A stretch of 64,000 nucleotides of DNA from NCBI GenBank assembly GCA_934096555.1, contig CAKOMD010000004.1, positions 12,792-76,791 on the forward strand, written 5' to 3'. Shown here piece by piece: positions 12,324-39,701 of the stretch (position 1 is its first letter; each line of letters starts with the position of its first letter). Origin of the DNA: an uncultured Bacilli bacterium (lineage in GTDB: Bacteria; Bacillota_I; Bacilli_A; RF39; UBA660). The position numbers and the translations under genes are program-made. The notes under the pieces are model-generated. The model made no database searches, was not told the origin of the DNA, and worked only from the letters and a program-made list of their open reading frames with translations.

Positions 12324-12338
12324 AATAATTCCTTCTTT

Positions 12339-12704: not shown

Positions 12705-12888
12705 TGTATTTATTACCTTTCTTTATTAGTTATCTCCTTGTTAATATTATTTTATAACAAAATAGGTAAAAAGTACATATTTATTTACTAAATTTTACTA
12801 AAATATATAGGTTTTATGGGAATTTATCTGTTTATTCTATTATTATTTTCTATATTTTTAATTTTATTATTATTTTTTAAATAAATTT

Positions 12889-19616: not shown

Positions 19617-19745
19617 ATAAAAATCTTTCCTTCCAATTAACTACCAATATTATAGCATTAATAATTTGAATTGTAAATAAGTTTAATATAAAAGAAAAGG
19701 CATTCCTTAAAAGATGGTCCTGCCCTTTCTTTGAGTATTTATTTC

Positions 19746-20606: not shown

Positions 20607-20618
20607 ATGTATCACCTT

Positions 20619-21800: not shown

Positions 21801-21825
21801 TAATATCACCACCTAATGGAGATTA

Positions 21826-23610: not shown

Positions 23611-24167
23611 TATGAAATCACCGTCCCAAAATTAGTTGTCATTCCACTATTAAGGAAATTATCAAGTATTATTCTTAAATCATCATTAGATACTTGTTTA
23701 GACTCTAAACCTGCATTAGCAAGTCCAGTAATTAGAGTTCTAAGTCTCTTTTGTATCAAATCATCATTCTTTTCTTTAAATAATATATAATACTCAGTAT
23801 CAGTAATATTATTATTCATGAAATCATTGGCCTTATCTATATCTTGATTGATTAACTTTCTAACTGCTGGATTAGGGGTTTGATTATATAATAATTGTAA
23901 TCTAGCAAGATAGTTATTTAAATCTACTGGTCTATCTGCAGATATTAACCAAAACTCAAAATCTATTGTATTATAGAAATTTTTTAAAGCTATTATTGTA
24001 TTATCTTGTGTACCTTGATCCAAGATAAAGATATTTCTTGGCTTTATTTTTACCCCTGTTACTTTTAGTTTGTTATCAAGTATTATTGTACCATTAGCAA
24101 TAGATTTAATTGGTAACCAATCTTCAGTATACTTTGAATTATTTTTTGTCGTCGCCAAATTTTTCAT
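23610..24167 (-). CDS. VirB4 N-terminal domain encoded as a separate ORF (start uncertain: 24167 or 24245)
   Basis: EDWLPIKSIANGTIILDNKLKVTGVKIKPRNIFIL...FWLISADRPVDL matches the usual VirB4/TcpF/PrgJ N-terminus. Its stop overlaps the next ATG as TAATG. Confidence 0.65.
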   Translation of the reverse strand: MKNLATTKNNSKYTEDWLPIKSIANGTIILDNKLKVTGVKIKPRNIFILDQGTQDNTIIALKNFYNTIDFEFWLISADRPVDLNNYLARLQLLYNQTPNPAVRKLINQDIDKANDFMNNNITDTEYYILFKEKNDDLIQKRLRTLITGLANAGLESKQVSNDDLRIILDNFLNSGMTTNFGTVIS

Positions 24168-24459
24168 AGAAACACCAACCTCTCCATATATAATTTCTTC
24201 TTTCTGTAAAAAATCTAAATATACTTTGTATAGCACATAAAACATTATGATAATTAGGTATTGGTACTACCAGTAGGCCAGTTACGCCTACTGGTAAACA
24301 TGATAACAATATCATTGCTGTATTGCTTGAATCAACAAGTATTAATAATAATAAAGTTACTGCCATTCCTGTACCAAACATAATTAAATCAAATGGTCTA
24401 AATATATTAAATATCAATGTACCTCTTTTAGCGTTAGCAGGTACTAAAAATCCATTCAC
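24139..24459 (-). CDS. PrgI/VirB3-like small membrane protein
   Basis: 106 aa with two TM helices, a LIFNIFRPFDLIMFG start pattern and a basic C-terminus RRNYIWRGW. Located immediately upstream of VirB4. Confidence 0.6.
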   Translation of the reverse strand: MNGFLVPANAKRGTLIFNIFRPFDLIMFGTGMAVTLLLLILVDSSNTAMILLSCLPVGVTGLLVVPIPNYHNVLCAIQSIFRFFTERRNYIWRGWCFYEKFGDDKK

Positions 24460-24479
24460 TATGTATCACACTCCTTTTA

Positions 24480-26663
24480 TTAATAATAGTTTGAACCATC
24501 AAACTCGTCGTTATTATTACTACTTGAATTTTGACCGCTGTTGTTATAATAATTTGGGTTTGTGTATGGATTATCGTCTTCATTACTATTATTTGCTCCA
24601 GTAGTATTAAACTGGCCATGTCCCGTTTCATATGGATTTCCATCATCATTTCCATATGTTGAATTATTATTTCCACTAGGTGTATTATCTGCAGTAAATT
24701 GACCATATCCTGCTTCATATGGATTACCATCTTCTCCATAATTTTCTACATTGCCAAATACAGATGGTGGTGTATTTGAACTTGATTGATGTTGATTATT
24801 TGTACTTTGAGGTTGCTGATTATTCTGAGGTGTAGTGGAAGTACTTTGATTGTTCTGTGTTTTTGGTTCGTTTTCATATTCTTTTACTTTTCCATGAGTT
24901 TTTTTATAATAGTCAAATACTTCTTCACGATGTGCATCGTCTGTATATATTTTCTTATTAGCATTATGTTTGTTTTGAGCAAGTTCTAATTTTCCAGCGG
25001 CTACTTTCTTATTTCTTTCTGCAGTTTTTATTCTGTTTTCGGCTCTTTCTATTGCTGCTTCATCACCACTATTATAAGCTGCTTGATATCTTGCATATTC
25101 TGTTTGATATTCTTGTTCTGCTTTTTTATTTTCTGCCTTTGCTCTTTCAACTCCCAATAAAGAATTTGCATATTCTTGATGTCTGAATATTCCTGCTTTA
25201 ATCCCAGTAATATTTTTATCCTTATCCGTTGTCACTAACTCGCCATCTGTTTTATTGTAGATTTTTTCTCCTTCTACTAGGCTTTTGTTATATTGTCTCT
25301 CATCTTCTTCAGCTTGTCTACGTTGCTTTATAGCTTCTCCTCTTCCTGGTAGCCACTTATCCATAGCTTGTCCGAATTTTCCTCTTGGTTTAGGTAGATT
25401 ATGTGCTTTTCTATCAATATATGTTCCCAATGCTTTTCCACCTTTTATTCCCCATCCTAATGGAGTGTATTTTCCAGTATCCTTTATTGGATCTAAAACA
25501 TTTTTCTTTAAACCGAGACCAAATCCTAGGCTGCCCTTTCCACCACTTAATCCTGGGAAAATATCACCAATTAACTCTGGCACCTTTTTAGCAAATATCA
25601 ATAATCCTATTATTAGGAATATTTTAATTAATGCTATTGTTGGAAAGCTTAGTTGGCTTCCATTAATGCTATCCATTAAAACACTATTAGTGTCGTTTAA
25701 TTGGTCTAAAACATCATTTGACAAGTACATAACAAAGTAGATAATAATTAATCTTAAAAATAAATCTAGATATGTTGTTGTACATTGCTTAACCCAATTT
25801 TTAAATGATCCATCTGGATCAGAAATATAAGACAATATTGGTACTGGGGCAACCAATTGTAAAAATGCTAGTTTAAACACTCTGGCCGCAACTTGAAAGC
25901 AATATACGAATAATATGTACGCCACTGCACAACCTACTATATTGATAAACAATTCATTAAATTCTATTACGAATTGACTATCTCTTCTAATTGAAAGTGG
26001 ACCAATTGTGTCATAAAAGTTCCATTTTGAATTGCCATCTGCTTTCACAGCATCATTTGTAACATTTTCTTTTAATGTGGTATAATTTATACTTTGATAT
26101 CTTTCTTCTAGTCTTTCATCATATTCTGCTGTTCCTAAGTCATACTTTGGAAATTCTTCATCCGTATAAAAGCTAAAGTATAAATCAGCTGCTAGCTTTC
26201 TTCCCATATTACTGCTATTTACCCCTATTGAGTTTTGCATAATTAACTTGTATATTATATTGTCATTAGAATTATTAGCACCAACAAGCAAATTTTGTAG
26301 TTTAAAAGCTTCTTTAAATAGCGAAGGTGTAATTCCAAGTAAAACTATAGAAATTATGCAGCGCATTATAATGGATGTAAAACCATTTTTTTTATCTGTT
26401 AATTTGTCAGGATCAATCAAAGCTTGTATTAATGAAAAAGTCAATTTAAATATCATGAACATACCTAAAATTAATCCGACACTTCTATAGATTTTTTGCA
26501 CTATATCGCTGTTTAATATTTCGGCTTTTGCTATTAATATAAAAACGTCGTACAAGTATGATATGATAGAATAAATTGTTGCAGCAATTGTTCCAAAGAA
26601 TGTTCTTATTGCCTGCTGAATGATTTTTCCGATATCACTAAACAAAAATGCATTATATATCAT
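24480..26663 (-). CDS. VirB6/TrbL-like polytopic T4SS channel protein with an N/Q/S-rich repeat tail
   Basis: At least 6 TM helices in the first 400 aa or so, a coiled-coil middle, and a tail with DGNPYE.G.GQF repeats. ATG at 26663 with an AAGGAGG RBS. Confidence 0.65.
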   Translation of the reverse strand: MIYNAFLFSDIGKIIQQAIRTFFGTIAATIYSIISYLYDVFILIAKAEILNSDIVQKIYRSVGLILGMFMIFKLTFSLIQALIDPDKLTDKKNGFTSIIMRCIISIVLLGITPSLFKEAFKLQNLLVGANNSNDNIIYKLIMQNSIGVNSSNMGRKLAADLYFSFYTDEEFPKYDLGTAEYDERLEERYQSINYTTLKENVTNDAVKADGNSKWNFYDTIGPLSIRRDSQFVIEFNELFINIVGCAVAYILFVYCFQVAARVFKLAFLQLVAPVPILSYISDPDGSFKNWVKQCTTTYLDLFLRLIIIYFVMYLSNDVLDQLNDTNSVLMDSINGSQLSFPTIALIKIFLIIGLLIFAKKVPELIGDIFPGLSGGKGSLGFGLGLKKNVLDPIKDTGKYTPLGWGIKGGKALGTYIDRKAHNLPKPRGKFGQAMDKWLPGRGEAIKQRRQAEEDERQYNKSLVEGEKIYNKTDGELVTTDKDKNITGIKAGIFRHQEYANSLLGVERAKAENKKAEQEYQTEYARYQAAYNSGDEAAIERAENRIKTAERNKKVAAGKLELAQNKHNANKKIYTDDAHREEVFDYYKKTHGKVKEYENEPKTQNNQSTSTTPQNNQQPQSTNNQHQSSSNTPPSVFGNVENYGEDGNPYEAGYGQFTADNTPSGNNNSTYGNDDGNPYETGHGQFNTTGANNSNEDDNPYTNPNYYNNSGQNSSSNNNDEFDGSNYY

Positions 26664-26680
26664 TATTAACCTCCTTACTT

Positions 26681-28516
26681 TTAACCTATTTTGCAACTAC
26701 TTGATTCAATAATTGGCCATACTTTATTTGCTAATTGTAAAATAAGATTTACAATTGTTGGAACAAAGAAAATTATAATGGCAATTATTAATCTTTTTAT
26801 AAAATTCTTTTGTGCCTTCTTCATTTGATCCTCTTGTCCAGCAAAAACTGCTTTTGAGAATTCAATAATTCCTAAGGCAATTAAAATTATAGGAACTGCT
26901 ATTTTTATTATATTTAGATAGCTATTTATTTTATCTATTAGGTTTTGTCCCAATAATCCTGCACAATCAACTACCGTTACTATGTTATTTTCAGAAGCGT
27001 ATTTTTCATACTTTGCTCTCCAAGTGTCTAGTTCTTTAACCTGCTCGCTTGTTAACAAATCTCTGTAGTTGCTATCTATATATGATATCATTATTGTGAA
27101 ATCTCTTATATATTCTTTAATCATTTTATCTATATTTAATACATCTTCTGAATTTGGTGCTATTTCTTTTAATGCTTTATTAAGACTATTATAAAATATG
27201 CTATCTAGTATTCCTGAATTAAGACTACGTTTTTCCACTGAATCAGTAATGTCAAATTTATTTGAATAGAATTTATTTGAATAATATTCATTTAAATCTT
27301 TTGAATCACAAACCATACTATTTTCGTCAAGTGAGAAGATATTAGTCCATGCATAAGTATATAATGATGCAGGTGGAGTTATTTCTTTATTAGTTCCTGT
27401 ATAGCACTTTGAATAATCTGTAAAATTATAGTCTTCCATGTTCTTTAAGTTATTATAAGCGTCCTTTAAATCTTCGAACATTTCTTGTGGTCTATAATTG
27501 TCTGGAAAAGAATAACTTGTTCCACTTTCTACGCTTTTTCTTATCTTTGCAGATTCATCAATTAGTTTTTCTTTCTTCTTTAGTTCACCATAAGAATTTG
27601 AAGTATTCTCGAAATTTTTCATTTCCTGCTCATACCATTCTTTTGCAGTATTTTTTAAAACTGAATTTGAATCTTTACTATCAACTATTAATCCAAATTT
27701 AATTCCTTTTTCTTTTTCCAAGTAGGTATAGCAATCGCCTTCTTTATAGTTTTCTGAGTCATATCCATACACAGCACATATATAATTAGGAAAAATGGCT
27801 TTTCTATTTGTTGATACCTTCCAAAAATCTCCCCATTGTGCTTCAACGGTAGTAGTACCAAAAAGTGTGCTATTTTGAACCGGTATTCCCCAAATAGTAA
27901 ATATTGCTAGTGATAATAGATTGTTCTTGTATAGTCCTTTATCAAATTTACCAACGATGTATTGAAGTTGATATTTTGCAACATTGTCACCACTTATTGT
28001 ATTTATATTTGCATATAAACCATCTTGATTATAACCTTCACCATAAACTATTTTTTGGCCTTTAGAATTTTCCAAATAATAAAATATATATTCATCATCT
28101 TTCAATTCAGAAGACTCGTTAATTCTTCCTTCACCTATTGGCACAAACATTTTTGCATTATCTTTAGCACTTCTAATTCCGGCTGGGCAAACCCCACTTA
28201 ATATTTTTTCTTCCACTTGTCCGGACTTTCTCCACTCGTCTTTGCAATTTTCATTGCCTTTGGTTATGTCTGGTATCCAGCAGCCATCTGTATTAGGTAT
28301 TTGCCAATTATCCTCTAATTGAAAGAATTGTCCAATGCCTTTAACCTTCGAACCGCTACCATCGGTTAATCTGACAAATCTATTGAACTTATCATTATAT
28401 TCTTCATTATATGCACAATCAAGATACATATAAGTTGCACTAACTTTTCTAGTAAATAACGTTGTTGTTAATAGTAATGTTATAATTATTAATAGTACTT
28501 TTTTATTTTTATTCAT
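26681..28516 (-). CDS. Secreted Cys-rich 611-aa protein ending in a VirB2-like two-TM domain
   Basis: Signal peptide MNKNKKVLLIIITLLLTTTLFTRKVSA. The last 95 aa or so align with the 109-aa protein at 28616-28945 (CAGL..VPI.LI.LG.I...KAV.A..ED..KKA.K.F.KR). Confidence 0.6.
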   Translation of the reverse strand: MNKNKKVLLIIITLLLTTTLFTRKVSATYMYLDCAYNEEYNDKFNRFVRLTDGSGSKVKGIGQFFQLEDNWQIPNTDGCWIPDITKGNENCKDEWRKSGQVEEKILSGVCPAGIRSAKDNAKMFVPIGEGRINESSELKDDEYIFYYLENSKGQKIVYGEGYNQDGLYANINTISGDNVAKYQLQYIVGKFDKGLYKNNLLSLAIFTIWGIPVQNSTLFGTTTVEAQWGDFWKVSTNRKAIFPNYICAVYGYDSENYKEGDCYTYLEKEKGIKFGLIVDSKDSNSVLKNTAKEWYEQEMKNFENTSNSYGELKKKEKLIDESAKIRKSVESGTSYSFPDNYRPQEMFEDLKDAYNNLKNMEDYNFTDYSKCYTGTNKEITPPASLYTYAWTNIFSLDENSMVCDSKDLNEYYSNKFYSNKFDITDSVEKRSLNSGILDSIFYNSLNKALKEIAPNSEDVLNIDKMIKEYIRDFTIMISYIDSNYRDLLTSEQVKELDTWRAKYEKYASENNIVTVVDCAGLLGQNLIDKINSYLNIIKIAVPIILIALGIIEFSKAVFAGQEDQMKKAQKNFIKRLIIAIIIFFVPTIVNLILQLANKVWPIIESSSCKIG

Positions 28517-28615: not shown

Positions 28616-28945
28616 TTAAGAATTTCTTATCTCATTCCAACATGCACGCCAATTGGCTTGATTAGGATTTATTTCATTTCCTGTTGCACTACTAACTGTA
28701 TCAAATACAAAAGTAACTAACCATACTACTGCAAATACACCAACAGCGTATAAGAATCTTTTACCAAAAGCTTTAGTAGCTTTCTTTACTTCATCTTCTT
28801 TACTAGCTATTACTGCCTTACCTAAATCTATCATTCCTAACACAATTAATACTATTGGAACACCTATCATAATGGCATTGATAACAAGGTTAACCAATCC
28901 AAATAGTGGCTTTAATCCAGCAGCACATCCATCTAAAAAGTACAT
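28616..28945 (-). CDS. VirB2/TrbC-like two-TM pilin-like protein
   Basis: 109 aa with two hydrophobic helices separated by KAVIASKEDEVKKATKAFGKR. First gene after its own promoter, upstream of the VirB6-like gene. Confidence 0.5.
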   Translation of the reverse strand: MYFLDGCAAGLKPLFGLVNLVINAIMIGVPIVLIVLGMIDLGKAVIASKEDEVKKATKAFGKRFLYAVGVFAVVWLVTFVFDTVSSATGNEINPNQANWRACWNEIRNS

Positions 28946-28972: not shown

Positions 28973-29016
28973 ATATTACAATAAAAATAGGTAATTGTCA
29001 ATTATTTGACAATTAC
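28973..29016 (-). promoter_or_regulatory. Sigma-A promoter embedded in an 11-bp inverted repeat (operator and/or terminator)
   Basis: Minus strand reads TTGACA (29001-28996), 17 nt, TAATAT (28978-28973). The inverted-repeat arms are gtaattgtcaa (28991-29001) and ttgacaattac (29006-29016). Confidence 0.55.
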
Positions 29017-29023
29017 TTATTAA

Positions 29024-29458
29024 TTATTTTTTTCTTATTAGTTTTTTAGCATTATTTTTTTTATTTTCTTGATGTTTTTTAAAACTATTTAAGATAAATG
29101 ATAATGTTTCATTATCTTTGGTACTTAATGTTATTATCTTTTTTTCTATATATGCTGCTTTTAGTTCTATTAGTAATGCTTTAGTATTCTCTAATTGTTC
29201 TTTTTCTTCCTCTACTAATTCTTTACTATCTAAAATACCTGATACTGCTAGTAAAAGTGATTCTATATTTAATACTAAATGATATTCATCTACAAATGTG
29301 TTATTAAACATCTCATTACATATAACTGCAGTCTCTGGTGTCTCTGCAATTATGATGCCCTTACCTTTTTGACTACTTGGAATATGATTTTTATGATACT
29401 TATCATATACTTTATTAGCTCTTTTTTCTATCAAATCATATTCTATATTATTTTTTGA
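29024..29458 (-). repeat. Copy 1 of an approximately 430-bp coding repeat
   Basis: About 90% identical by eye to 29712-30155 and 31603-32010. Confidence 0.75.
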
Positions 29459-29710
29459 TTCTATAATTATTTTTTTTGGATCTTCAAGAAGGGAACCACC
29501 AACAAAAGCAGCTAATACTGTCATTATTGTTGTATCTTTGCCTAGCCCTGAATTTATAGTATTACTTGCAGAATTAGCTGAAGTTGCTGTTCCTCCTGAT
29601 GTTAATTGCGCAGTTTGTTCTGGGTATGACAATGTTATTGTTGAAACACCGCCTATTGTGCTTGCCCCACCAAGTGAAGTTGATACCATTTTTATATCGT
29701 CATCATACAT
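29024..29710 (-). CDS. Polymorphic paralog A (228 aa): divergent G/S/T-rich N-half, conserved C-half
   Basis: The C-terminal 140 aa or so are nearly identical to paralogs B and C (EYDLIEKRANK...TPETAVICNEMFNNTFVDEYHLVLNIESLLLAVS...KKHQENKK). No signal peptide. Confidence 0.7.
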   Translation of the reverse strand: MYDDDIKMVSTSLGGASTIGGVSTITLSYPEQTAQLTSGGTATSANSASNTINSGLGKDTTIMTVLAAFVGGSLLEDPKKIIIESKNNIEYDLIEKRANKVYDKYHKNHIPSSQKGKGIIIAETPETAVICNEMFNNTFVDEYHLVLNIESLLLAVSGILDSKELVEEEKEQLENTKALLIELKAAYIEKKIITLSTKDNETLSFILNSFKKHQENKKNNAKKLIRKK

Positions 29711-29711
29711 T

Positions 29712-30155
29712 TTATGCTTTCTCCTTTTTCTTTATTAGTTTTTTGGCATTATTTTTTTTATTTTCTTGATGCTTTTTAAAACTATTTAATATAAATGATA
29801 AGGTTTCATTATCTTTGGTACTTAATGTTATTATCTTTTTTTCTGTATAAGCAGCTTTTAGTTCTATTAGTAAATCCTTAGTACTCTCTAATTGTTCTTT
29901 TTCTTTTTGAACTAATTCTTTACTATCTAGAATACCTGATACTGCTAGTAAAAGTGATTCTATATTTAATACTAAATGATATTCATCTACAAATGTATTA
30001 TTAAACATCTCATTGCATATAACTGCAGTCTCTGGTGTATAAGCAATTATTATACCTTTTCCCTTTTGATTACTTGGAATATGGCTTTTGTGATACTTAT
30101 CATATATTTTATTTGCTCTTTTTTCTATCAAATCATATTCAACATTATTTTTTGT
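29712..30155 (-). repeat. Copy 2 of the approximately 430-bp coding repeat
   Basis: See copy 1. Confidence 0.75.
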
Positions 30156-30419
30156 TTCCATTTTGATTACATATACTCCTGATGCTAATAATCCAGCTAA
30201 ACTTGTGGTTACAAGTCCAGACTTCGCACTATCTTCTCCTGCCAATGATTCCATTGACCCTTCAGATGAATTTATCGAACTTGATAGTCCTCCACCTGTT
30301 GTACCATTAACTGTTAATTCAATTGTTGTATCAGGGTGAAATAATGTTGTTGAAACTACTCCTGATATTGCACTAACGCCTAGTGATGAAGCCACTACTT
30401 CATCTGTATTGTCACGCAT
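29712..30419 (-). CDS. Polymorphic paralog B (235 aa)
   Basis: Same architecture as A. Its stop is followed by the ATG of A after 1 nt (TAA-A-ATG), and the extra C-terminal KKKEKA codons carry the RBS of A. Confidence 0.7.
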   Translation of the reverse strand: MRDNTDEVVASSLGVSAISGVVSTTLFHPDTTIELTVNGTTGGGLSSSINSSEGSMESLAGEDSAKSGLVTTSLAGLLASGVYVIKMETKNNVEYDLIEKRANKIYDKYHKSHIPSNQKGKGIIIAYTPETAVICNEMFNNTFVDEYHLVLNIESLLLAVSGILDSKELVQKEKEQLESTKDLLIELKAAYTEKKIITLSTKDNETLSFILNSFKKHQENKKNNAKKLIKKKEKA

Positions 30420-30553
30420 TTTATATCTCCTTTCTCACTATCAACTTTTTCATATTGATTTTTTTCTTTGTATTTTTTACAAATCATTTAATTTTTTTAA
30501 TTAAAGTTTTTGCATTTTTAAACAAAAATTTATTTTATACGTATTCTTTTTTC

Positions 30554-31576
30554 TTAAAATATCATTGATGTTTTAATTTTCATTCTGCTCTCATTAGTTA
30601 GTTTGTTTATTTTAACTATACTTTTCATTATCATTTTTAAATTGTCACTTAATATTTCTTCTTCTGAAATTATTATTTTACAATTTTCTTTGTTTTTAAT
30701 AAACTTTATGGCTTTTTCAATATACTTATTTATTAGATATTCTACATATTCTCTAAATTGTTGATCACATTCCATAGCCTTAATTATTATATCATAATCT
30801 GCCATTGATATAATTATATTAGTAATAAATTTATCATATAGTTCATAATTTTCATTATTTTTTTCTTTGTACAATGTATATACGTCTTTTAACGTTCCAT
30901 TTGAATTAAAGAAATTTTTTAGTACCTTATATTCTTCTAGTATTTCTGGATATTTTTTTACATAATTAGCTGTTCCAATGTAATATGTACCAAAATTGTC
31001 TAAAGCTATTTGATTCTTTCCATAATTAACTTCTAATGTTTCATTTAATAACTCTAATGTACTAATTATTTTTTCCACTGTTTCCTTTTTGCTTTTAAAG
31101 GCATCAACATTTGCTGCCTTTTTATATCCTACTAATAAACTATTAATTTCATTTAATGAAACTTTGTAGTTATTCTTTAACTTCTTTCCTATAAATAATT
31201 TTGCCTTAATACCAAGATTTATTTTATCTGGTGGTAACTTCAAATATGATAGATATGTTATATATTCCATCATAGTCATAATGTGATTATAGTTATAAAA
31301 ATCTTGTTTTTTTGTACTTTCAAATGGTTTTATGTGCTCTATTTCATGACATATTGTATTATATATATAAAATAATTTGTCTTCATGTGACATATCTTTA
31401 AACTTAAATAGATTTATCGTTATTCTATATTTTCCTTCGCCAACATTTGGAAGCATACTTCCCGATTCCTTTAGCATTGGATTATACACCACATTTAATG
31501 AGACGTTGTCTATGTTTTCTCTTTTTGTTTCAATATTAAATACCTCATAGCAATAATCTTTATAAATATTATTCAT
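30554..31576 (-). CDS. HExxH-motif protein, putative zinc metallopeptidase of undetermined family
   Basis: 340 aa with the single motif NTICHEIEHIK about 85 residues from the N-terminus. No signal peptide. Sits between paralogs C and B. Confidence 0.45.
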   Translation of the reverse strand: MNNIYKDYCYEVFNIETKRENIDNVSLNVVYNPMLKESGSMLPNVGEGKYRITINLFKFKDMSHEDKLFYIYNTICHEIEHIKPFESTKKQDFYNYNHIMTMMEYITYLSYLKLPPDKINLGIKAKLFIGKKLKNNYKVSLNEINSLLVGYKKAANVDAFKSKKETVEKIISTLELLNETLEVNYGKNQIALDNFGTYYIGTANYVKKYPEILEEYKVLKNFFNSNGTLKDVYTLYKEKNNENYELYDKFITNIIISMADYDIIIKAMECDQQFREYVEYLINKYIEKAIKFIKNKENCKIIISEEEILSDNLKMIMKSIVKINKLTNESRMKIKTSMIF

Positions 31577-31602
31577 TTTATATGTTCTCCTTTTTTCTTT
31601 TA

Positions 31603-32010
31603 TTAATTTTTTTGCATTATTTTTTTATTTTCTTGATGTTTTCTGAAACTATTTAATATAAATAATAATGTTTCATTATCTTTAGTACCCAATGTTATTA
31701 TCTTTTTTTCTGCATATGCCGCTTTTAATTCTATTAATAATTTTTTTGTTTTTTCTAGTCTTTCTTTTTCTTCTACAATTAATTCTTTAGTATCTAAAAT
31801 ATTTGATACTGCTAGTAAAAGTGATTCTATATTTAATACTAAATGATATTCATCTACAAATGTGTTATTAAACATTTCATTACATATAACTGCAGTTTCT
31901 GGTGTATCAGCAATTATTATACCTTTTCCCTTTTGATTGCTTGAAATATGATTTTTATGATATTTATCATATATTTTATTTGCTCTTTTTTCTATAGCAT
32001 CATACTATAT
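31603..32010 (-). repeat. Copy 3 of the approximately 430-bp coding repeat
   Basis: See copy 1. Confidence 0.7.
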
Positions 32011-32268
32011 ATCATTTTTAGTTTTGTAATATAAAATATATCCAGGTTTTCCTTCTTTCATTCCTGTCATGCTAAAAGCAGACATCACTCCAAGTAGTTT
32101 GATAACTGAATCTTGTTTTGCAGTTTTCTCTCCGCCGTTTATTGAGATGATTGCTTTATCTAAACCCATTAAGGAGCCTACGCTGGTAGATGTCATTCCT
32201 GTTAACGTTATTGTTTGATATAAACTATCGTAAGAACCAGGCAAGATTTCCATATATTCATTTTTCAT
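31603..32268 (-). pseudogene. Polymorphic paralog C interrupted by an in-frame TAG at 32005-32007
   Basis: ORFs 32005-32268 and 31603-31875 share a frame. Reading through gives ...YYKTKNDI*YDAIEKRANKIYDKYHKNHISSNQKGKGIIIADTPETAVICNEMF.... The stop replaces the Glu of the NIEYD motif in A and B. Confidence 0.65.
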
Positions 32269-32269: not shown

Positions 32270-32842
32270 TTATCTTACCATCTTTCTTACTTTAGTTTTT
32301 GGATTTTCTTTTGGCTCAATATTATCATCTTGTATCCCCATACTATTATAATTATTTATTATTTTTTCTGTCTGTATGTTATTATTTTGATATTTGCAAC
32401 TTGTATTTGTTAATTCACACAAAAGTTCTTTATCATATTGACTACAATTGTTTGAAATAGTTTTTGCTTTTTTTGCCTCTAGTAATTCTTCTTTTGCTGA
32501 TAACCTTATCCAATTATATCTTTGCAACATTACACAATAGGCATCTTTTAATAGCCATGCACTAAGTCCTATTAATGATAATGTTTTAAGATTTAATAGG
32601 TACATTAATACCAACAATGGTATACCTCTTATTAAATTGTTAGTATGTATTGCTCCATTATAAAATAAATATTTCTTAAAATCTTCTAATGAATTCAATT
32701 GATTTTTCTGAATATGATAATTTGTATTCTTTCCTTTATCTTTTCTGTGAACAATCTTTTCTAATTTAAATGCTGCTTTTCTAAATAACTTTACCCCAAG
32801 CAATTCGTAAATTTTCATTTCTATTTTTTGACTTTTTTTCAT
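32270..32842 (-). CDS. Membrane protein resembling the CrtO-like acyltransferase family
   Basis: YELLGVKLFRK near the N-terminus, two TM helices, then MLQRYNWIRL (compare VQRYNRPRL in staphylococcal CrtO). First gene after a consensus promoter. Confidence 0.35.
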   Translation of the reverse strand: MKKSQKIEMKIYELLGVKLFRKAAFKLEKIVHRKDKGKNTNYHIQKNQLNSLEDFKKYLFYNGAIHTNNLIRGIPLLVLMYLLNLKTLSLIGLSAWLLKDAYCVMLQRYNWIRLSAKEELLEAKKAKTISNNCSQYDKELLCELTNTSCKYQNNNIQTEKIINNYNSMGIQDDNIEPKENPKTKVRKMVR

Positions 32843-32872: not shown

Positions 32873-32901
32873 ATTTTACATAATTTGGTAATATTTGTCA
32901 A
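32873..32901 (-). promoter_or_regulatory. Consensus sigma-A promoter
   Basis: Minus strand reads TTGACA (32901-32896), exactly 17 nt, TAAAAT (32878-32873). The ATG at 32842 has a GAGGGGGAAAAG RBS. Confidence 0.65.
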
Positions 32902-32916
32902 GTATTTTTAATTAAA

Positions 32917-32941
32917 AACTAACGTTAGTTAAACGTTAGTT
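32917..32941. promoter_or_regulatory. Perfect 14-bp palindrome AACTAACGTTAGTT plus an extra half-site; putative operator
   Basis: aactaacgttagtt (32917-32930) followed by a-aacgttagtt (32932-41). Centred about 25-40 bp upstream of the -35 hexamer. Confidence 0.4.
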
Positions 32942-32944
32942 TGA

Positions 32945-33987
32945 TTATCTATTCCCTTTTCTTCCTTTTGATTCTACAATGGTTGCTAACTCTTTTTCTA
33001 CTTGTTCAGCAAATAATAGTTGAAGTTTTAATGTGTTATCAGTATCTATCTTAGGTATATTTCTTTTAGCCATGTTTTCATACATTTTCATATCATTATC
33101 TACTTTCTTAGTTGCTGCTCCAAGTATAACATAAATATTATCTTTTACATGTTTTAATACTATTCTTACTTGATCACTTTTTAGTTCTCTACATTTTTGG
33201 ATATTGGCATTATTAGTTAATGCTTTATATTCACCTGCTGATAGAGTACCTGTTTTAAAGCCATTAATTAGGTAATATACGGTATCATAATACTCTTGTG
33301 GTATATCATCTAAGTCAGCAATAAATTTTGACTTGTAGGATTAACTTCAGAAGCTAAATATATTAATCTATGTGTTTTTTTAACCTCTTGCTCTTCTTCT
33401 ACTAATTCTTCTTTGATATCTTCTGAATTTTCTTTTCTTTCACAAAAAGCATCCTAATATTTTCTTACTGATAAGAAGAAATTTAACTCGTTATAGTAAC
33501 ATTCTATCATATCTTTTCTATCCCTTATATTATGATAATTATCTTTATCTGTTAATAATTCATAGAAATAATATAATTCATTTTGACTAGCAATTATTGT
33601 TTTAATAATTATATATTTATATTCTTCATCATTAAATGTATGAGTTTTTTGTACTTCCAAGGAGTTAATAATTTCTTCCATCGTAGGATTACCCTTTTTA
33701 GTTTTTAAAACTTCATCTACAAATTTATCTAGTGTCTTACTTCTTCTATCATTTATTCTTGGAAGAGTAAATATTTCATATCCAGCATTTACTATATTAG
33801 GTATTTCATCATGTAAGTTCTTTGCATGTTTTTTCTCTATCCCATTACCTTCCTTTTTAGTAAGTAACAATCTATTATATTGTTCTATTTCATTCATATA
33901 TAATAGTTCTTCATATCTCTTTTTGTCATTTTTCTTAATATCAATATATTCTTTAAGTAATTCTATTATTTCTTCCTTGTATTACAT
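32945..33987 (-). pseudogene. Decayed gene of about 345 codons: TAA at codon 2, in-frame TAG at 33454-33456, 1-nt frameshift near 33320-33335
   Basis: GGTGGAG RBS, then ATG-TAA (33987-33982). The same frame stays open through track ORF 33454-33897. After the TAG it continues DAFCERKENSED...EVNPTSQN. A shifted frame then reads KFIADLDDIPQEYYDTVYYLINGFKTGTLSAGEYK...DQVRIVLKHVKDNIYVILGAATKK... to a stop at 32945. Confidence 0.5.
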
Positions 33988-34065
33988 TTTGCTCCACCTT
34001 CTAGTATAATTTTACTAAATTTTTATAATCTTGTCTAATCAAAAATAAAAAACGCTTATCATGCG

Positions 34066-35064
34066 CTATTTACTTTTTTTAAAGATACTGAAGATACTCT
34101 TTTTAGGAGATTCTTCTGTTTCTTCTTGTACTTTAATATATCCTAATTTTTCTAGAAGAGGTAATATATATTTACTTACATCTTCTTTATCGTTTAATGG
34201 GGGCATATTATAAAATACTTTTAAATCTGATTCTACTTCAAAATTAGCTATATCACTATTATTTAATAGACTCTTATTTAGTATTATATTCTTACCTTTT
34301 AACTCACCAAATATCTTAGGATTTATTAATGATAATTTGTTTAATTTAATAGTACTAGGCTCTATTAAATATAATACATCAGTACATATATGTTCCTTGT
34401 TAGTTCTGTTTAGATCTATAACAAAGGTATTTATACTGCTATATTTATTTATTGTATCTTCAAGGGCATCTTCTTTTATTGATAAACAATCCTTATCATG
34501 AAAGTATGTTAAATCCATTTTATTTAGTTCTATAGCCATAGTACTATAGTAATCACTTAATGTCTTTTTTAGTAGGTATACTAGTGTTGTCGCTCCTGCT
34601 GAATCAGTTACATTCTTAACTCCAAGTATTTTTTTAGCAGACAAACTGAGAGAAGCATTTGGTGTTTCTTCTACTTGGCTATCTATATCTTGATAGTGAG
34701 CTACATCTCTATAAATATTAGGATTAGTATATAGATACATTAGATCATTTGGTTCTTTAGTAAAGTTATATATTCCCATACTAACTAATTTAGATAAAAA
34801 TACTTTTGAATCACTTATTTGATCATCTTTATCCAGTAATAATATAACTTTATCCATATTAATACTCATTGATAATTTTTGTAAGTTATTTAAATCTTTA
34901 TAATCTTTAATAGCAGTTATATCTAAAAACATTTTATTAAAGAAATAATTCCCAAAAGTAGATATTATTTCATCTACTTCGTAGACTCCCTCTAATTTCT
35001 TAGATACCTCAATATTTAATGTATTTAGTATGTCACTATATTTGTTGGCTATTACTGTATCCAT
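34066..35064 (-). CDS. TadZ/CpaE-like ParA-fold protein with a degenerate P-loop
   Basis: N-terminal pseudo-receiver-like region of about 130 aa. Then ILGVKNVTDSAGATTLVYLL where KGGxGKTT is expected, and later FVIDLN / VLYLIEPS. Sits at the end of the Tad module. Confidence 0.45.
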   Translation of the reverse strand: MDTVIANKYSDILNTLNIEVSKKLEGVYEVDEIISTFGNYFFNKMFLDITAIKDYKDLNNLQKLSMSINMDKVILLLDKDDQISDSKVFLSKLVSMGIYNFTKEPNDLMYLYTNPNIYRDVAHYQDIDSQVEETPNASLSLSAKKILGVKNVTDSAGATTLVYLLKKTLSDYYSTMAIELNKMDLTYFHDKDCLSIKEDALEDTINKYSSINTFVIDLNRTNKEHICTDVLYLIEPSTIKLNKLSLINPKIFGELKGKNIILNKSLLNNSDIANFEVESDLKVFYNMPPLNDKEDVSKYILPLLEKLGYIKVQEETEESPKKSIFSIFKKSK

Positions 35065-35516
35065 TATCTATTTATCCTTTCTATTTTACGAGTTTCACCT
35101 GTTATTGGAACATTGAAGTTTAATTTAAAGAATGGAAGATTAATATTTATGTATGTTGTTACTTTATAATACTTACTTGTTACGCCATCATTTGTTGACC
35201 CTGAAGTTTCTTCAATGCAGTAACCTCTATCATAACAATGTACATTATCAGTATTACTATTTTTTATGTCTGCTAAATTTACATAATAGCTAACTGTGTT
35301 TAAGTATGTATTAATACTTCCAATTACAGATCCTTCTTTGGTATCTGTATAATCCGAATCATTTATTCCTTCATTCTGCTCTATGATATCTATTATTCTA
35401 TTTTTAACTCTAAAGGCTTTAGCATAGTTTAAGGCTACCGCTATAAAAGCTATATAGATGGCTAAAAATATTAACATTAACTTTATTGTAAAAGTTCCAC
35501 CAAATGCCTCTCTCAT
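35064..35516 (-). CDS. TadE-like pseudopilin
   Basis: MREAFGGTFTIKLMLIFLAIYIAFIAV: a short charged leader, Gly-Gly, then a hydrophobic helix. 150 aa, adjacent to the Flp-like gene. Confidence 0.45.
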   Translation of the reverse strand: MREAFGGTFTIKLMLIFLAIYIAFIAVALNYAKAFRVKNRIIDIIEQNEGINDSDYTDTKEGSVIGSINTYLNTVSYYVNLADIKNSNTDNVHCYDRGYCIEETSGSTNDGVTSKYYKVTTYININLPFFKLNFNVPITGETRKIERINR

Positions 35517-35544
35517 TTATATCACCTACTTTAATATTCTTAAA

Positions 35545-35727
35545 TTATTCGCATCTGCTTCCATTCCAAGTTTGTCCTTCAGGACATACGTTGTTAGCAT
35601 TTCCACCAAATGCATTATTGATAGTTTCAGTTATTTTTGGCCACATAAGTGCTAAAATACCACCAATTACTGCTACTGCTACAATAACTATTACTGTCAT
35701 TGATACTTCACCTGTTGCTTCTTTCAT
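35545..35727 (-). CDS. Flp-like small prepilin with a C-terminal Cys pair
   Basis: 60 aa, MKEATGEVSMTVIVIVAVAVIGGILALMW... ending CPEGQTWNGSRCE. GGTGA RBS. Immediately downstream of the TadB/C-like genes. Confidence 0.5.
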   Translation of the reverse strand: MKEATGEVSMTVIVIVAVAVIGGILALMWPKITETINNAFGGNANNVCPEGQTWNGSRCE

Positions 35728-35785
35728 CACTTTTCACCTTCTTTCATATATTATTTTTTTATTCTTTTCTATATATTTCTAATCT

Positions 35786-36577
35786 TTAGAAACTCATTAT
35801 CATAAAGATTGAAATCAGTAGTAATCCAAGAGATCCAAAACCTGTTACACACATCATAATCATGGTTTTTCTCTCCATAGTATCAAGTCTAGCCTGATAC
35901 TTCATTTCTCTTGATTTTGCTTGAAGAGATGATACTGATTTAGAGAAGGATACTAATTGTTGATGTTTCTTTTCTTGTTCTCCTAGTCCTAATCTATATA
36001 ATAATCTCATCATTCTCATTGAATCTCTTACTGGATATTCTTTAGCAAAATCCATATATGGATCTATTGAAGAATCTCCAGCCTCTATTCTTGCTACTAG
36101 TCTTTTTAATCCTGGTTTAAATACTTCAGGGGCATCATCTATACTTTTAGCTAAAGCTACTGGTACTGTATAGTGATGAACTAGTACTTCTAAACTTTTT
36201 AAGTAATATGGTAATAAGGAATCTATATAATTTAGATGTTTTTTATACCAACTTCTAAGAGAAGTATATTGCTGTTTATATACTAGATATCCTACTACAA
36301 TAGCGGCTATTACTGTTAAGTAACTCATTTGTGATAGGAATAAGAATATTAATGCAGCTGCAACAATAACGCCGTTTCTTATTCTTTTCATGAATACTTC
36401 ATTTGGGTCATATACTCTATCTCCATATTTAGCTATTAATAGAAAGTCATAATCCTTTTCTTTTAACAAATTACATAGTTTGTTATTATTACCAAAGATA
36501 CTATCTTTATCTATTTTTCCATTTACCATAAATATATATATTACTATTATGGCTATTATTAGCATTTCTATATACAT
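35786..36577 (-). CDS. TadC-like (T2SS-F family) polytopic membrane protein
   Basis: 263 aa with TM helices at the N-terminus, middle and C-terminus. Overlaps the preceding paralogous gene by 1 nt. Confidence 0.5.
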   Translation of the reverse strand: MYIEMLIIAIIVIYIFMVNGKIDKDSIFGNNNKLCNLLKEKDYDFLLIAKYGDRVYDPNEVFMKRIRNGVIVAAALIFLFLSQMSYLTVIAAIVVGYLVYKQQYTSLRSWYKKHLNYIDSLLPYYLKSLEVLVHHYTVPVALAKSIDDAPEVFKPGLKRLVARIEAGDSSIDPYMDFAKEYPVRDSMRMMRLLYRLGLGEQEKKHQQLVSFSKSVSSLQAKSREMKYQARLDTMERKTMIMMCVTGFGSLGLLLISIFMIMSF

Positions 36578-37482
36578 TATTCGGCACCTACATTCTCGTT
36601 ATAATATTTTTCTCCTGATAGAAGAAAATAACTATTTATTAAGACAATACCATGTATTAGTATTCGAATTAATGTATTATCAATCATAGATATATATGTT
36701 TCTTGTCCTATTAATATTTGAATAAGGGCTACCATTCCATATAGAGCTACTCCAAAGGTTAGAAATTGTTTATGGAAGTTTGCTCTATCTGTTCTATCTC
36801 GATATACGCCTTCTACTAAGATGTCTATATCTGATAACATGTTTTCAAATGTTTCTGCTGTATCCTTGGCACCCTCTTTAGTTACTTGTAGAAATAACTG
36901 ATGCATATTTTTTACCATATAATATGGATATTTGGTATCCATATATTTTATTGAATCATAGACATCACCTTTTTCATAAGATAGTGCTATCATTGTTTTT
37001 ACATCAGATAAAAGTGGTTCTTCAAGTATTCCTGATTCTACTACTCCCTCTAGTGATTTTACAAAGGCCTGAGTAGTAGCAAATTCCATTATGGTATTGG
37101 TGCAATATACTTGTACTTGTTCAAATATATATTCACTGTATTGTCTTTTGCATCTTAAATATGTTATGTATGGTATAAATGATACCGCTACTATGATATA
37201 TACTAATGATATCAAGATGTTATAGAAGTACAAATAACTTATGCCACCTGCTAATCCAGCAAAGGCTATTAGTTGAAATAGGTATTGTCTTGGAGTATAC
37301 TCTAGTCCTAGTTCTTTTACCTTTTCTCTCATTATTTTAAATGAGTATGGTTCTATTTTTTTATATGTATTTATAGCCTGCTGCGAGATAAACTTATATA
37401 CTGATTCTCCCTGCTTAGTACGATAAGATACTATAAATATTATTATTAAACCTATTAGGATGATTTCCACTTCTATCACCAC
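36577..37482 (-). CDS. TadB-like (T2SS-F family) polytopic membrane protein
   Basis: 301 aa with the same topology. Directly follows the ATPase gene. Confidence 0.5.
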   Translation of the reverse strand: MVIEVEIILIGLIIIFIVSYRTKQGESVYKFISQQAINTYKKIEPYSFKIMREKVKELGLEYTPRQYLFQLIAFAGLAGGISYLYFYNILISLVYIIVAVSFIPYITYLRCKRQYSEYIFEQVQVYCTNTIMEFATTQAFVKSLEGVVESGILEEPLLSDVKTMIALSYEKGDVYDSIKYMDTKYPYYMVKNMHQLFLQVTKEGAKDTAETFENMLSDIDILVEGVYRDRTDRANFHKQFLTFGVALYGMVALIQILIGQETYISMIDNTLIRILIHGIVLINSYFLLSGEKYYNENVGAE

Positions 37483-37483
37483 C

Positions 37484-38818
37484 TTAACTTATATTTTGAT
37501 CACTATTTATACTTGCTACATTTATACTTGTTGGTGCACTAGGTGCTGAAGCATAAATATTTGGTATATTATTAGGAGGAGTTACCACATTACTAGTATT
37601 CATGGTACTTACCATATTATTATTTGGCGTACTTGTTACTGGATTATTGATAGCTGGAGTATTATAAATTGTATTTTGTACTCCAGTATATAGACTATGG
37701 TCTACTACGAACTCTCCTACCTTATCTTTATTTATTATATCATTATTTTCGCTACTAGTAAACTCTTCTTTTACTAAAATATCTGGAGGCATTATTACCC
37801 CTTGACTTTCTAGATATGAAAGTAAGTATTTGGACGGATTAGCAGTTGTTTCTTTTCCATCTGGAGTCTTTTTATATAGTATTTTATATTCTGCCTTATT
37901 ATCGTCTGTAACATAGAATTCTACTACCTCTGATACTTCTCTATGAAAGGCATTATATTTAGTACTATAATATCCTTTTATGTGTACTCCTAATTGTACA
38001 TATCTATGAATTGTTTTTAAAAACTGATCTATATCTTGGCTTGTTTCTAGTAGGCTATACATTCTACTTGGAATTGATTCTGCTTTATCAGCATGAATTG
38101 TTGATAAAATATTATGTCCAGAAGATATTGAGTTTCTAACAGCCATTACTGCTTCAGCACTTCTTACTTCGGATAGTAATATCCATCTTGGGTTCTGTCT
38201 CATACAAGTAACTAATACATCTGAATATGATGCTATATTATTTGTTTTCATGGCAACAATATCTCTATGTGGAAATATTTTATCTAAGTGTAACTCTAAT
38301 GTATCTTCGATTGTTATTATCTTTTCATTTTCTTTGGTATGGGCTGCTAGATATTTTATGAACTCTGTTTTACCACTACCAGTTTCACCACTTACCATAA
38401 TGTTACAATGTCCTTCAACGCATTTAAGTAGAAAATCATGAATATTTAGTCTTATGTAATCTTCTGCGATTATTTTATCTTTTTGTAATCTTATTTTAGC
38501 AGGTGTCTTTCTTATTAATACTGCTATACCATTTCTAGCTATGGAATCATGTACAAAGTTCATTCTTAACTCTGCTGATTCGGCATCAAGAAAGGGATTA
38601 GCCATATTAAACGACTTGCCCATTGAATTAGCACACTGAAAGGCTATTTTTTCCATTAGAGCATTATCTATTCCAGTATTTTCTACTCTATATACGCCTT
38701 TAGATAATGACTTTAGCCATACTTGACCACCATTATCGTAAGATATATCGGTTATATCGTCATTATCAAGAAATTGTTTTAATGGACCAAAATCTATTTG
38801 ATTAAATTGATTGTCCAT
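37484..38818 (-). CDS. CpaF/TadA-type secretion ATPase with an N/T/P-rich C-terminal tail
   Basis: Walker A SGETGSGKT, ITIEDTLEL, Walker B ILLSEVRSAEA, His box GHNILSTIHA. The last 90 aa or so are low complexity. Confidence 0.85.
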   Translation of the reverse strand: MDNQFNQIDFGPLKQFLDNDDITDISYDNGGQVWLKSLSKGVYRVENTGIDNALMEKIAFQCANSMGKSFNMANPFLDAESAELRMNFVHDSIARNGIAVLIRKTPAKIRLQKDKIIAEDYIRLNIHDFLLKCVEGHCNIMVSGETGSGKTEFIKYLAAHTKENEKIITIEDTLELHLDKIFPHRDIVAMKTNNIASYSDVLVTCMRQNPRWILLSEVRSAEAVMAVRNSISSGHNILSTIHADKAESIPSRMYSLLETSQDIDQFLKTIHRYVQLGVHIKGYYSTKYNAFHREVSEVVEFYVTDDNKAEYKILYKKTPDGKETTANPSKYLLSYLESQGVIMPPDILVKEEFTSSENNDIINKDKVGEFVVDHSLYTGVQNTIYNTPAINNPVTSTPNNNMVSTMNTSNVVTPPNNIPNIYASAPSAPTSINVASINSDQNIS

Positions 38819-38832
38819 GCTACACCTCCTTA

Positions 38833-39669
38833 TTAGTTATTGTTTGTATTAGTTGTATCTTCAGTTACATTATCACTTACTTGTGGTAAATCGTCTACTG
38901 ATACAAATGCTGTTTTAGAATTTATGAATTCTTCTATTTGAAGACTGCTTACTGTTACTTTTTGGTCTTCAGATAATGTTGCAGTATTTGGTATTAATAA
39001 TAATTCTACATCATAGTCTGTTAGATATAATGCTTTTCTTAATAATAGGTGTGTTTCTTCTGGTACTGCAAATAGCATATATGCAGGAGTTCTAGCTTCA
39101 TCACTATTTTCAAATACATGTCTACCTGATGAATCTTTAACATCTAGTACTTCAATATTACTGATGAATTTACCAAACATTACTTCTCCATCGTCATTTA
39201 ATGATTTGTAATAGATATTGATATGACTACCTGGAGCCATTGAGTTAGCGTATGTAGTTGCTATTGTTACTGGATAGTTTATTACAGTATATCCTTCTGG
39301 TACTCCTGAAAAAGCTGAATCCGGTAAGTCTTTTTCGTCTACCACTAAATCTGTATAGAATAAACTTCCTTTAGCTATCATAGTATTATAATTAGAATAT
39401 TTTCCTACGATACTTTTGGCTGTGGTATAGTACTTACTAGTATTAAGTAGTTCTATAGGAACATTTCTAATCTCTATCATATCGTCTGTTATGTATGTTC
39501 TTGGTTGTATTGTTTGTTTAGCAACAGGTACTGCTACTAATTCTGTTTTAGAATTTATTCTATAATTATAACCAATATATAATATTACTAAACATAATAT
39601 TACCCCTAGTATGGTAACGGTATTTTTGTTACCAAAAAATTTTTTCATTGATGCTTTTAAATTATTCAT
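38833..39669 (-). CDS. CpaB/RcpC-like Flp pilus assembly protein
   Basis: N-terminal TM helix, then a SAF-like segment VAVPVAKQTIQPRTYITDDMIEIRNVP...GKYSNYNTMIAKGSLF. Confidence 0.6.
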   Translation of the reverse strand: MNNLKASMKKFFGNKNTVTILGVILCLVILYIGYNYRINSKTELVAVPVAKQTIQPRTYITDDMIEIRNVPIELLNTSKYYTTAKSIVGKYSNYNTMIAKGSLFYTDLVVDEKDLPDSAFSGVPEGYTVINYPVTIATTYANSMAPGSHINIYYKSLNDDGEVMFGKFISNIEVLDVKDSSGRHVFENSDEARTPAYMLFAVPEETHLLLRKALYLTDYDVELLLIPNTATLSEDQKVTVSSLQIEEFINSKTAFVSVDDLPQVSDNVTEDTTNTNNN

Positions 39670-39701
39670 ATTATTTTCCTCCTTTATTTAAATAATTTTT
39701 T

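Follow-up and report, generated by a model that had tools for sequence, protein, structure and literature searches.

We analysed a 64,000-nt stretch of DNA, hereafter the window, from an uncultured Bacilli bacterium of the RF39 lineage (contig CAKOMD010000004.1, positions 12,792 to 76,791), in which three paralogous genes, here called A, B and C, lie inside a type IV secretion system (T4SS) locus. All genes of the region are carried by the minus strand (Table 1). A and B are intact and C is dead, and the three belong to an unannotated family of two-module proteins that has a narrow distribution and is specific to T4SS loci. A preliminary description, made from the letters of the sequence, had read them as three tandem open reading frames (ORFs) and as possible substrates of the adjacent T4SS, by analogy with the X-Tfe effectors of Xanthomonas. 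A and B are indeed complete ORFs, but C contains none, since it is interrupted by a TAG at codon 88 and by a 1-nt deletion. The arrangement is also not strictly tandem, because a gene for a 340-aa protein lies between C and B.

Two modules of different evolutionary behaviour

The common 3' halves of the three genes were returned by a repeat search as a 300-nt direct repeat in three copies, with 93% and 86% identity. Over the 411-nt conserved module, DNA identity is 91.5% between A and B, 87.6% between A and C and 87.3% between B and C, in good agreement with the common C-terminal module of about 140 aa and about 90% DNA identity reported before. The onset of this module is sharp in the paralogs, at E(S/T)KNN(I/V)EYD (ESKNNIEYD in A). 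The B and A ORFs are 1 base apart, the junction reading TAA-A-ATG, and the junction between the CrtO-like gene and C reads identically; these junctions, like all the peptides cited in the preliminary description, were found in the sequence. An exact look-up of protein B returned no database record.

The AlphaFold2 (AF2) model of A, obtained with a 42-sequence alignment, shows the same division. Residues 90-226 form a confident, mostly helical domain, with predicted helices at 90-104, 124-136, 141-161, 166-187 and 196-226 plus two short strands, in the order alpha-beta-alpha-alpha-alpha-beta-alpha. For residues 1-81, the predicted local distance difference test (pLDDT) is below 50, and this part is predicted to be disordered. 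Thus, the architecture proposed earlier, a conserved C-terminal half (C-module) joined to a variable N-terminal half (N-module), holds. A Foldseek search of the model against PDB gave no match below E=1. The C-module ends in a Lys-rich tail (KKHQENKKNNAKKLIRKK, with one Gln), a feature that had been noticed before. Net charge over the last 20 residues is +8 in A and +7 in B, the two highest values among the 56 window ORFs (the next being +4), and therefore the basic tail is not a mere effect of AT-rich genome composition. It is retained in relatives that are about 25% identical.

We observed substantial differences in substitution rates between the two halves. For the C-parts of A and B, synonymous divergence (dS) is 0.38 and nonsynonymous divergence (dN) 0.04, with a ratio (omega) of 0.10; for the N-parts, dS is 1.2 and dN 0.72, values that are saturated and that bear out the divergence of the N-terminal halves. 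Moreover, C-modules are closer within a genome than between orthologs: the identity of A to B in the window exceeds that of either to A and B of a related locus, L001 (85-87%). In another, L006, the C-modules of copies 1 and 2 are 99.8% identical while their N-parts differ, and the copy L005_C is a mosaic, whose 5' part is like A of L001 and whose 3' part is like C of the same locus. The C-module thus undergoes concerted evolution through gene conversion, on top of purifying selection. Homogenisation by gene conversion had been put forward in the preliminary description as the alternative to its own proposal; the higher identity within genomes, the mosaics and the contrast in dS all speak for it.

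The N-part, a low-complexity sequence that matches no family, ranges from 0 to 95 aa and comes in discrete, interchangeable types, and some copies have no N-module. N-parts form 18 clusters at 60% identity. Their types are the conserved one of C (47 protein clusters), a short one of 22-28 aa, devoid of any hydrophobic segment (17 protein clusters), and no fewer than 10 that are rich in Gly, Ser and Thr. In A and B, these three residues account for 40-44% of the N-part, and its net charge is -4 and -7, respectively. Each variable part has two marginally hydrophobic segments rich in small residues, at approximately residues 8-25 and 60-80, with an acidic Ser/Thr-rich stretch between them; most types are acidic. 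The preliminary description was right about the Gly/Ser/Thr-rich composition and the hydrophobic Gly/Ala-rich stretches, although it counted one such segment per protein where there are two, both weakly hydrophobic (maxima on the Kyte-Doolittle scale, over 19 residues, of 1.0-2.3). Two other identities were considered for the N-parts and rejected. They are not lipoproteins, given that Cys is not conserved and that there is neither a lipobox nor a signal-peptide-like n- or h-region. They are not homologous to T4SS pilins: hhalign comparison of 38 N-parts with the pilin-like sequences of the locus gave a probability of 0.1% (E 0.54), and neither A and B nor other family members matched the T4SS pilin family PF18895 of Pfam.

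Of the two lesions of C, the in-frame TAG (32005-32007) stands where A, B and every homolog have Glu, and the deletion, within a run of A near 31626, puts another sequence in place of the basic tail. In the sister strain L022, which is 98.8% identical across 20.6 kb, codon 88 of C is GAA and the tail is intact, and this copy carries its own stop, at codon 4, together with a frameshift around codon 22. C is therefore a true pseudogene, inactivated independently in two sister strains; the C-type orthologs of L001-L004 are intact and 218 aa long. Reassignment or readthrough of TAG was discarded as an explanation, since TAG is a normal stop that ends 8 of the 53 other window ORFs, and L022 has GAA at that codon together with other lesions. 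Assembly error is unlikely, as the change from GAA to TAG takes two substitutions and the indels concentrate in two pseudogenes. Among the 19 indels between the window and L022, 8 fall in p485, a broken 485-aa gene, 2 in C, 7 in one patch of the VirB6-like gene, one in DUF5411 and one immediately before the start of the CrtO-like gene. The genes for A, B, the 340-aa protein and the CrtO-like protein have no indels and 0-0.2% substitutions (a single one in A, 0.15% of sites), compared with 0.6% in C.

The second pseudogene, p485, immediately precedes the CrtO-like gene, in the stretch that also holds C. Its ortholog in L001 is intact (7813-9270). In the window, about 108 residues are absent, and the rest is interrupted by an in-frame stop (SVRKY*DAF) and by a frameshift around residue 361; in L022 the gene is fragmented as well, in a different manner. 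The patch of the VirB6-like gene (25211-25236), with its 7 clustered indels and a net gain of 15 nt in L022, is a local hypervariable spot.

Putative enzyme partners and distribution of the family

Two genes for putative enzymes accompany the family. The 190-aa product of one passes the Pfam family CrtO, PF18927 (46.9 bits against a cut-off of 27.3, E 4.2e-12, residues 7-115), and its gene adjoins a family member in L001, L012, L013, L014, L015, L017 and L020. The other is the 340-aa protein, which has no match in Pfam or NCBIfam. Its residues H77, E78, H81 and E104 do not vary among 14 sequences, the most distant of them 34% identical, and homologs at 33-39% identity invariably keep HE[IF]EH and a downstream EY motif. 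The AF2 model (predicted template modelling score, pTM, 0.80) places a three-stranded sheet before the helix with HExxH, which is followed by the helix with the Glu. Foldseek gave for this model only a local match, to the zincin-like 3e11_A (probability 0.90, TM-score 0.51 on the target, and a weak E of 1.9). Judging from the motif and the model, it is plausible that the 340-aa protein is a peptidase.

The CrtO-like gene, the zincin-like gene and the adjacent family member are exchanged together between strains. In L013, L014, L015, L017 and L020, family members only about 25% identical fill the same slot, with genes for a CrtO-like protein and for a homolog of the 340-aa protein beside them, and L021 has the CrtO-like/340-aa pair in the identical slot. 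The case of L020 is the clearest: its flanks are 95-98% like the window, yet it carries the distant type of all three genes, plus one close-type copy, which indicates cassette exchange. Junctions within the set are of 1 nt and 8 nt, and the genes are adjacent or overlapping wherever the enzymes occur. The set is also found in L012, a contig of another sporulating Firmicute, where positions 9322-12707 encode a CrtO-like protein, a family member whose gene has an 8-nt overlap, a zincin-like protein and a 308-aa protein with a T4SS-pilin-like C-terminus; this orphan module sits beside two rve transposases among housekeeping genes.

The family is small and confined to few hosts. We found 112 close relatives among 5.8 billion clusters, none with a functional name or a Pfam domain, two of them being labelled only "hypothetical protein" or "FL=1". 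An exhaustive profile search gave 35 matches among 1.84 billion protein representatives, all of them fragments or small proteins not exceeding about 240 aa, except for two that matched in multiple stretches (2414 and 4900 aa; not inspected). The 21 distant relatives that we read are 162-206 aa long and have two modules like A and B, with a Gly/Ser/Thr-rich N-part and mostly a K/R-rich end; they share the core motif ETK..Y..E.RA..IYDKY.K.H, and the last ~60 aa are absent. At the level of species, genomes with matches are only Clostridium sp. CAG:302 and metagenome-assembled genomes of uncultured human-gut Bacilli. T4SS genes lie beside the family member in 11 of the 12 loci long enough to judge, the exception being L012, so that the link to the T4SS locus presumed in the preliminary description is near-exclusive. 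The family occupies the identical slot of the locus in L001-L006, L010, L013-L015, L020 and L022; for L008 (cut at the left end), L017 (in a different order) and L021, the context of the slot was confirmed in part.

Searches with A and B found nothing in Pfam, NCBIfam or PADLOC, and in PHROGs a single marginal match (E 0.006) whose function is not named. With 42 family members, no consistent Pfam family emerged at E<=1. A profile search of PDB sequences returned nothing credible, its one match (E=4) being a designed helical protein. Plasmid or phage origin was rejected, with no family match among PLSDB plasmids, at the DNA or protein level, or in IMG/VR. The literature yielded nothing relevant on DUF5411, on CrtO in connection with conjugation or on CAG-302 with a T4SS. 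The family, its fold and its enzyme partners are not described in any library searched.

The surrounding locus

The sequence upstream of the CrtO-like gene holds the best promoter-like match of the region, at 11/12 positions, and this site is kept in L001. At the other end, directly 3' of the A stop, is a terminator-like perfect palindrome whose 3' arm includes TTGACA, the -35 box of a promoter-like site that would serve the pilin-like gene downstream (pilin109). The palindrome is kept in L001, L006 and L010, where it stands between the last paralog and the pilin-like gene, and it could be a terminator, an operator or both. Because the promoter-like site and the flanking hairpins bracket them, the CrtO-like gene, C, the 340-aa gene, B and A appear to be transcribed together, as a unit apart from the structural genes. 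From the 340-aa gene through B and A to the pilin gene, no further ORF intervenes.

Table 1. Features of the window discussed in the text, in order of position
Feature	Position	Strand	Remarks
T4SS structural block	17439-28516	-	Pfam and NCBIfam results
VirD4	17439-19616	-	all-alpha/TrwB domain
M23/lysozyme hydrolase	20619-21812	-	T4SS block
VirB4 ATPase	21826-23610	-	594 aa; T4SS block
TraC-like piece resembling the N-part of VirB4	23610-24245	-	211 aa
VirB3-like protein	24139-24459	-	106 aa; labelled by size and position only, no family match
VirB6-like protein	24480-26696	-	T4SS block
611-aa protein with pilin-like C-terminus	26681-28516	-	C-terminal region weakly matches PF18895 (T4SS_pilin)
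pilin109	28616-28945	-	109 aa, two strongly hydrophobic helices, VirB2-like; first gene of the downstream structural block
Perfect palindrome, 16-bp stem (GTAATTGTCAAATAATTGACAATTAC), and T-run	28986-29021	.	directly 3' of the A stop; terminator-like
Paralog A	29024-29710	-	intact ORF, 228 aa; variable N-part is residues 1 to ~85
C-module repeat in A	29027-29458	-	repeat search, tblastn, identity matrix
Paralog B	29712-30419	-	intact ORF, 235 aa; N-part type differs from A, C-module alike
C-module repeat in B	29745-30155	-	as for A
Zincin-like protein	30554-31576	-	340 aa; between C and B; HEIEH at residues 77-81, Glu104
Paralog C	31603-32268	-	pseudogene with C-type N-part
C-module repeat in C	31612-32022	-	as for A
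CrtO-like small membrane acyltransferase homolog	32270-32842	-	190 aa; first gene of the unit; stop 1 nt from the C start
Promoter-like site TTGACA-17-TAAAAT	32873-32901	-	upstream of the CrtO-like gene; best match of the region
Hairpin, 11-bp stem	32916-32942	.	ends the broken 485-aa gene and precedes the promoter-like site
p485, broken ortholog of a 485-aa gene	32945-34000	-	
Tad-like/VirB11-like block	34066-43368	-	two polytopic membrane proteins, weak CpaB-like protein, DUF5411
ORF with TadE-like hydrophobic N-terminus	35064-35516	-	150 aa; no family match
Flp-like prepilin candidate (MMKEATGEVSMTVIVIVAVAVIGG...)	35545-35730	-	61 aa; no family match
T2SSE ATPase	37484-38818	-	Tad-like block

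The window is chromosomal, with PFOR, AsnRS, SufB and YunB on one flank, and Thioredoxin, SpoU, QueH, MurE, RNase Y, FtsY, GAPDH and RecD2 on the other. Between them, the T4SS block is joined by a Tad-like block, in which the Flp-like and the TadE-like ORFs lie downstream of the two polytopic membrane proteins. VirB4 appears split into the 211-aa TraC-like protein and the 594-aa ATPase, which overlap by 1 nt, and this is the same in all related loci; the 211-aa protein matches the N-part (positions 94-277) of the Mbov_0397 VirB4 model. Both the VirB6-like and the VirB4-N-like proteins have NCBIfam similarity only to families of Mycoplasma integrative and conjugative elements (ICEs), below the cut-offs, and no plasmid VirB4 reaches 30% identity to that of the window. 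At the locus we recognised neither a relaxase or integrase nor a tRNA or an att-like flanking direct repeat, which favours a role other than self-transfer. The T4SS plus Tad-like locus may be a domesticated, non-self-transmissible T4SS.

Comparison of the window proteins with 21 related loci revealed a mosaic pattern of conservation across metagenomes, in which the ATPases and the Tad-like membrane proteins reach 90-98% identity and the central block, overall, 30-60%. VirB4 (92-98% identity), the TadB-like protein (89-98%) and a 278-aa protein (79-97%) are conserved across loci. The central block is hypervariable: identities are 25-86% for the family, 47-83% for the CrtO-like protein, 33-84% for the 340-aa protein, 48-87% for pilin109, 30-59% for the 611-aa protein and 32-49% for the VirB6-like protein. 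The M23/lysozyme hydrolase and a 289-aa protein are variable too (43-79%).

Possible roles and comparison with known systems

The reading that we favour, tentatively, sees in the C-module a common device for docking or handling, by which the weakly hydrophobic N-modules would be presented to the envelope or to the channel. The C-module and its basic tail would dock the coupling machinery of the T4SS, the two co-encoded enzymes, or both; the C-module would present interchangeable N-modules to the envelope or the secretion channel. Proteins of the A/B type would then be cargo handled, and possibly processed, by the T4SS, or subunits that insert into the envelope, rather than classical effectors with toxin and immunity partners. 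This retains the core of the earlier idea and drops its toxin/immunity and XVIPCD claims. Since proteins consisting of only the XVIPCD, the conserved C-terminal domain of X-Tfes, exist in Xanthomonas as small proteins (PMC8740702), the short copies of our family are not by themselves an argument against their being substrates.

Several points weigh against this reading. The ORFs around A and B include no immunity-like gene, and secretion of A and B, like their binding to VirD4, is hypothetical. Where VirB4 is still 92-93% like that of the window, the C-module can be only ~25% identical and devoid of its last ~60 aa, a strange property if conserved machinery has to recognise it as a signal. In L010 the sole copy is of the short type and both enzymes are missing, and therefore processing is not obligatory. 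L012 has no T4SS ATPase within 10 kb, so that the module may work without the type IV coupling protein (T4CP). In addition, the C-type copy was inactivated independently in two sister strains, and the promoter and terminator calls are matches to consensus only. A bolder proposal is that the C-module and tail would be the first dedicated substrate-recognition domain to be described for a chromosomal and apparently relaxase-less Bacilli T4SS, a functional analogue of the XVIPCD of independent origin, and that interchangeable glycine-rich, membrane-inserting peptides matured by the zincin-like and CrtO-like proteins would be delivered through it; we consider this unlikely.

It is less probable, though worth considering, that the proteins are not secreted but act as membrane-anchored specificity or entry-exclusion factors, whose N-types would match variants of the hypervariable VirB6-like and pilin-domain proteins, in the way of YddJ and ConG in ICEBs1 or of TraS/Eex and TraG. 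The hydrophobic segments would form a hairpin or the second one would span the membrane, leaving the acidic variable stretch outside and the C-module and tail in the cytoplasm. The negative charge of the N-parts of A and B and the Lys-rich sequence that follows the second segment fit the positive-inside rule; the N-types are discrete, the unit appears to have its own promoter, and the family adjoins the genes for pilin109, the 611-aa protein and the VirB6-like protein, which are only 30-59% identical where VirB4 is 92-98%. A preprint on ICEBs1 describes the specificity pairing of YddJ and ConG (bioRxiv 10.1101/2021.01.25.428195). Linkage of the family to the hypervariable VirB6-like protein (32-49% identity) does not by itself demonstrate that their variants pair. 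A membrane factor without an anchor or variable part makes little sense, and short N-part copies without hydrophobic segments do exist, one of them being the sole copy in L010. AF2 predicts no helices in the N-part, many members are marginally hydrophobic, and scans of Pfam and NCBIfam gave no homology to known exclusion proteins. The zincin-like and CrtO-like partners, which look obligatory, would also be left unexplained.

In another reading the proteins are precursors: the zincin-like protein would cut between the N-part and the C-module, the C-module would serve as the handle for the enzymes, and the CrtO-like protein would modify the freed Gly/Ser/Thr-rich hydrophobic peptide, yielding a signal, a bacteriocin-like peptide or a component of the envelope. 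The three genes are adjacent or overlapping and move together between strains, and L012 keeps them with no T4SS ATPases nearby; HExxH and the Glu are invariant; and the boundary between modules is sharp, at a conserved (E/K)TKN motif. Yet the call of a zincin rests on the motif and on that weak local fold match, and we recognised no dedicated transporter for such a peptide. A and B are extra copies downstream of the enzymes, and L010 has a family member with no enzymes. Known processed peptides usually have the order leader-core, which a conserved C-terminal handle would reverse. On balance, we regard processing of this kind as unlikely.

Least probable of the readings that we weighed, and in our view improbable, is that the proteins are strict antibacterial effectors like X-Tfes, with the conserved half as the equivalent of the XVIPCD for VirD4 and the N-half as a membrane-disrupting toxin. 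Exported membrane-targeting effectors have glycine-rich segments of low hydrophobicity, which those of A and B resemble; the conserved C-terminal module has a charged tail, and the locus has a T4SS with VirD4 and no recognised relaxase. Domain-only small proteins are, as said, known among the XVIPCD proteins as well. The XVIPCD has an alpha-alpha-beta-beta-beta fold, a Gln-rich tail and a length of ~120 aa, and it is attached to toxic N-domains and accompanied by paired immunity genes (PMC8740702). In A and B, however, AF2, Foldseek and the scans revealed neither this fold nor a Gln-rich tail, a toxic N-domain or an upstream immunity gene: the predicted order of secondary structure and the Lys-rich tail are different, no enzymatic or recognised toxin domain is attached to the conserved module in any member, and no immunity-like gene is paired with A or B, whereas X-Tfes always come with one (PMC8740702). 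The XVIPCD analogy as a matter of membership, the toxin-domain payload and the effector with an immunity partner find no support. Moreover, the host belongs to a Bacilli lineage with a Mycoplasma-ICE-like T4SS, and one copy, C, decays freely. What remains of our expectation is left to some other role altogether.

The protein substrates, specificity factors and maturation steps of T4SSs are poorly known in Gram-positive-type bacteria. The hosts here are uncultured gut Bacilli with small genomes that are often met in metagenomes of the human gut, Hadza and Nepali samples among them. A well-delimited, machine-specific family, with a module boundary, a handle, swappable heads and two enzymes, thus offers a concrete experimental handle on the T4SS plus Tad hybrid. 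If its members are cargo, the family would define a new secretion signal; if they are exclusion or specificity factors, it would explain the hypervariable core of the locus.

The general kind to which the family belongs, a modular polymorphic set of proteins that goes with a secretion system and is kept uniform by gene conversion, is already known. Among individual systems, the Mycoplasma/Mollicutes ICEs (Mbov_0396/0397, MMCAP2_0566) provide the sole NCBIfam matches of the VirB6-like and VirB4-N-like proteins. These matches are below the cut-offs, and the locus described here differs in being chromosomal, in having no recognised recombinase and in its added Tad-like module; in those ICE models, nothing annotated corresponds to the A/B/C family. 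Pilin maturation involves the TraX acetylase and TraQ for TraA in F-type systems, and the TraF peptidase for TrbC in P-type systems. Our locus resembles them in that a T4SS is accompanied by a putative membrane acyltransferase and a putative peptidase near small hydrophobic hairpin proteins and a pilin gene. It differs in its enzymes, which are CrtO-like and zincin-like, and in that the N-parts are not homologous to the pilins of the locus.

With the entry-exclusion systems (YddJ-ConG, TraS/Eex-TraG), the family has in common that small polymorphic proteins of discrete, putative specificity types are encoded inside a T4SS cluster, next to a polymorphic protein of the VirB6/TraG family. No homology was found, however, and YddJ is a lipoprotein, whereas the A/B family has no lipobox or signal peptide, contains a large conserved domain that looks cytoplasmic and includes anchorless copies. 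The likeness to X-Tfes and the XVIPCD is one of layout: a variable N-part followed by a conserved C-module of ~120-140 aa with a functionally charged tail, several paralogs per genome, domain-only small versions and a T4SS that contains VirD4. Sequence and fold are not similar; here, the tail is Lys-rich, toxin domains and paired immunity genes are missing, acyltransferase-like and zincin-like genes are co-encoded, and the hosts are Bacilli, not proteobacteria.

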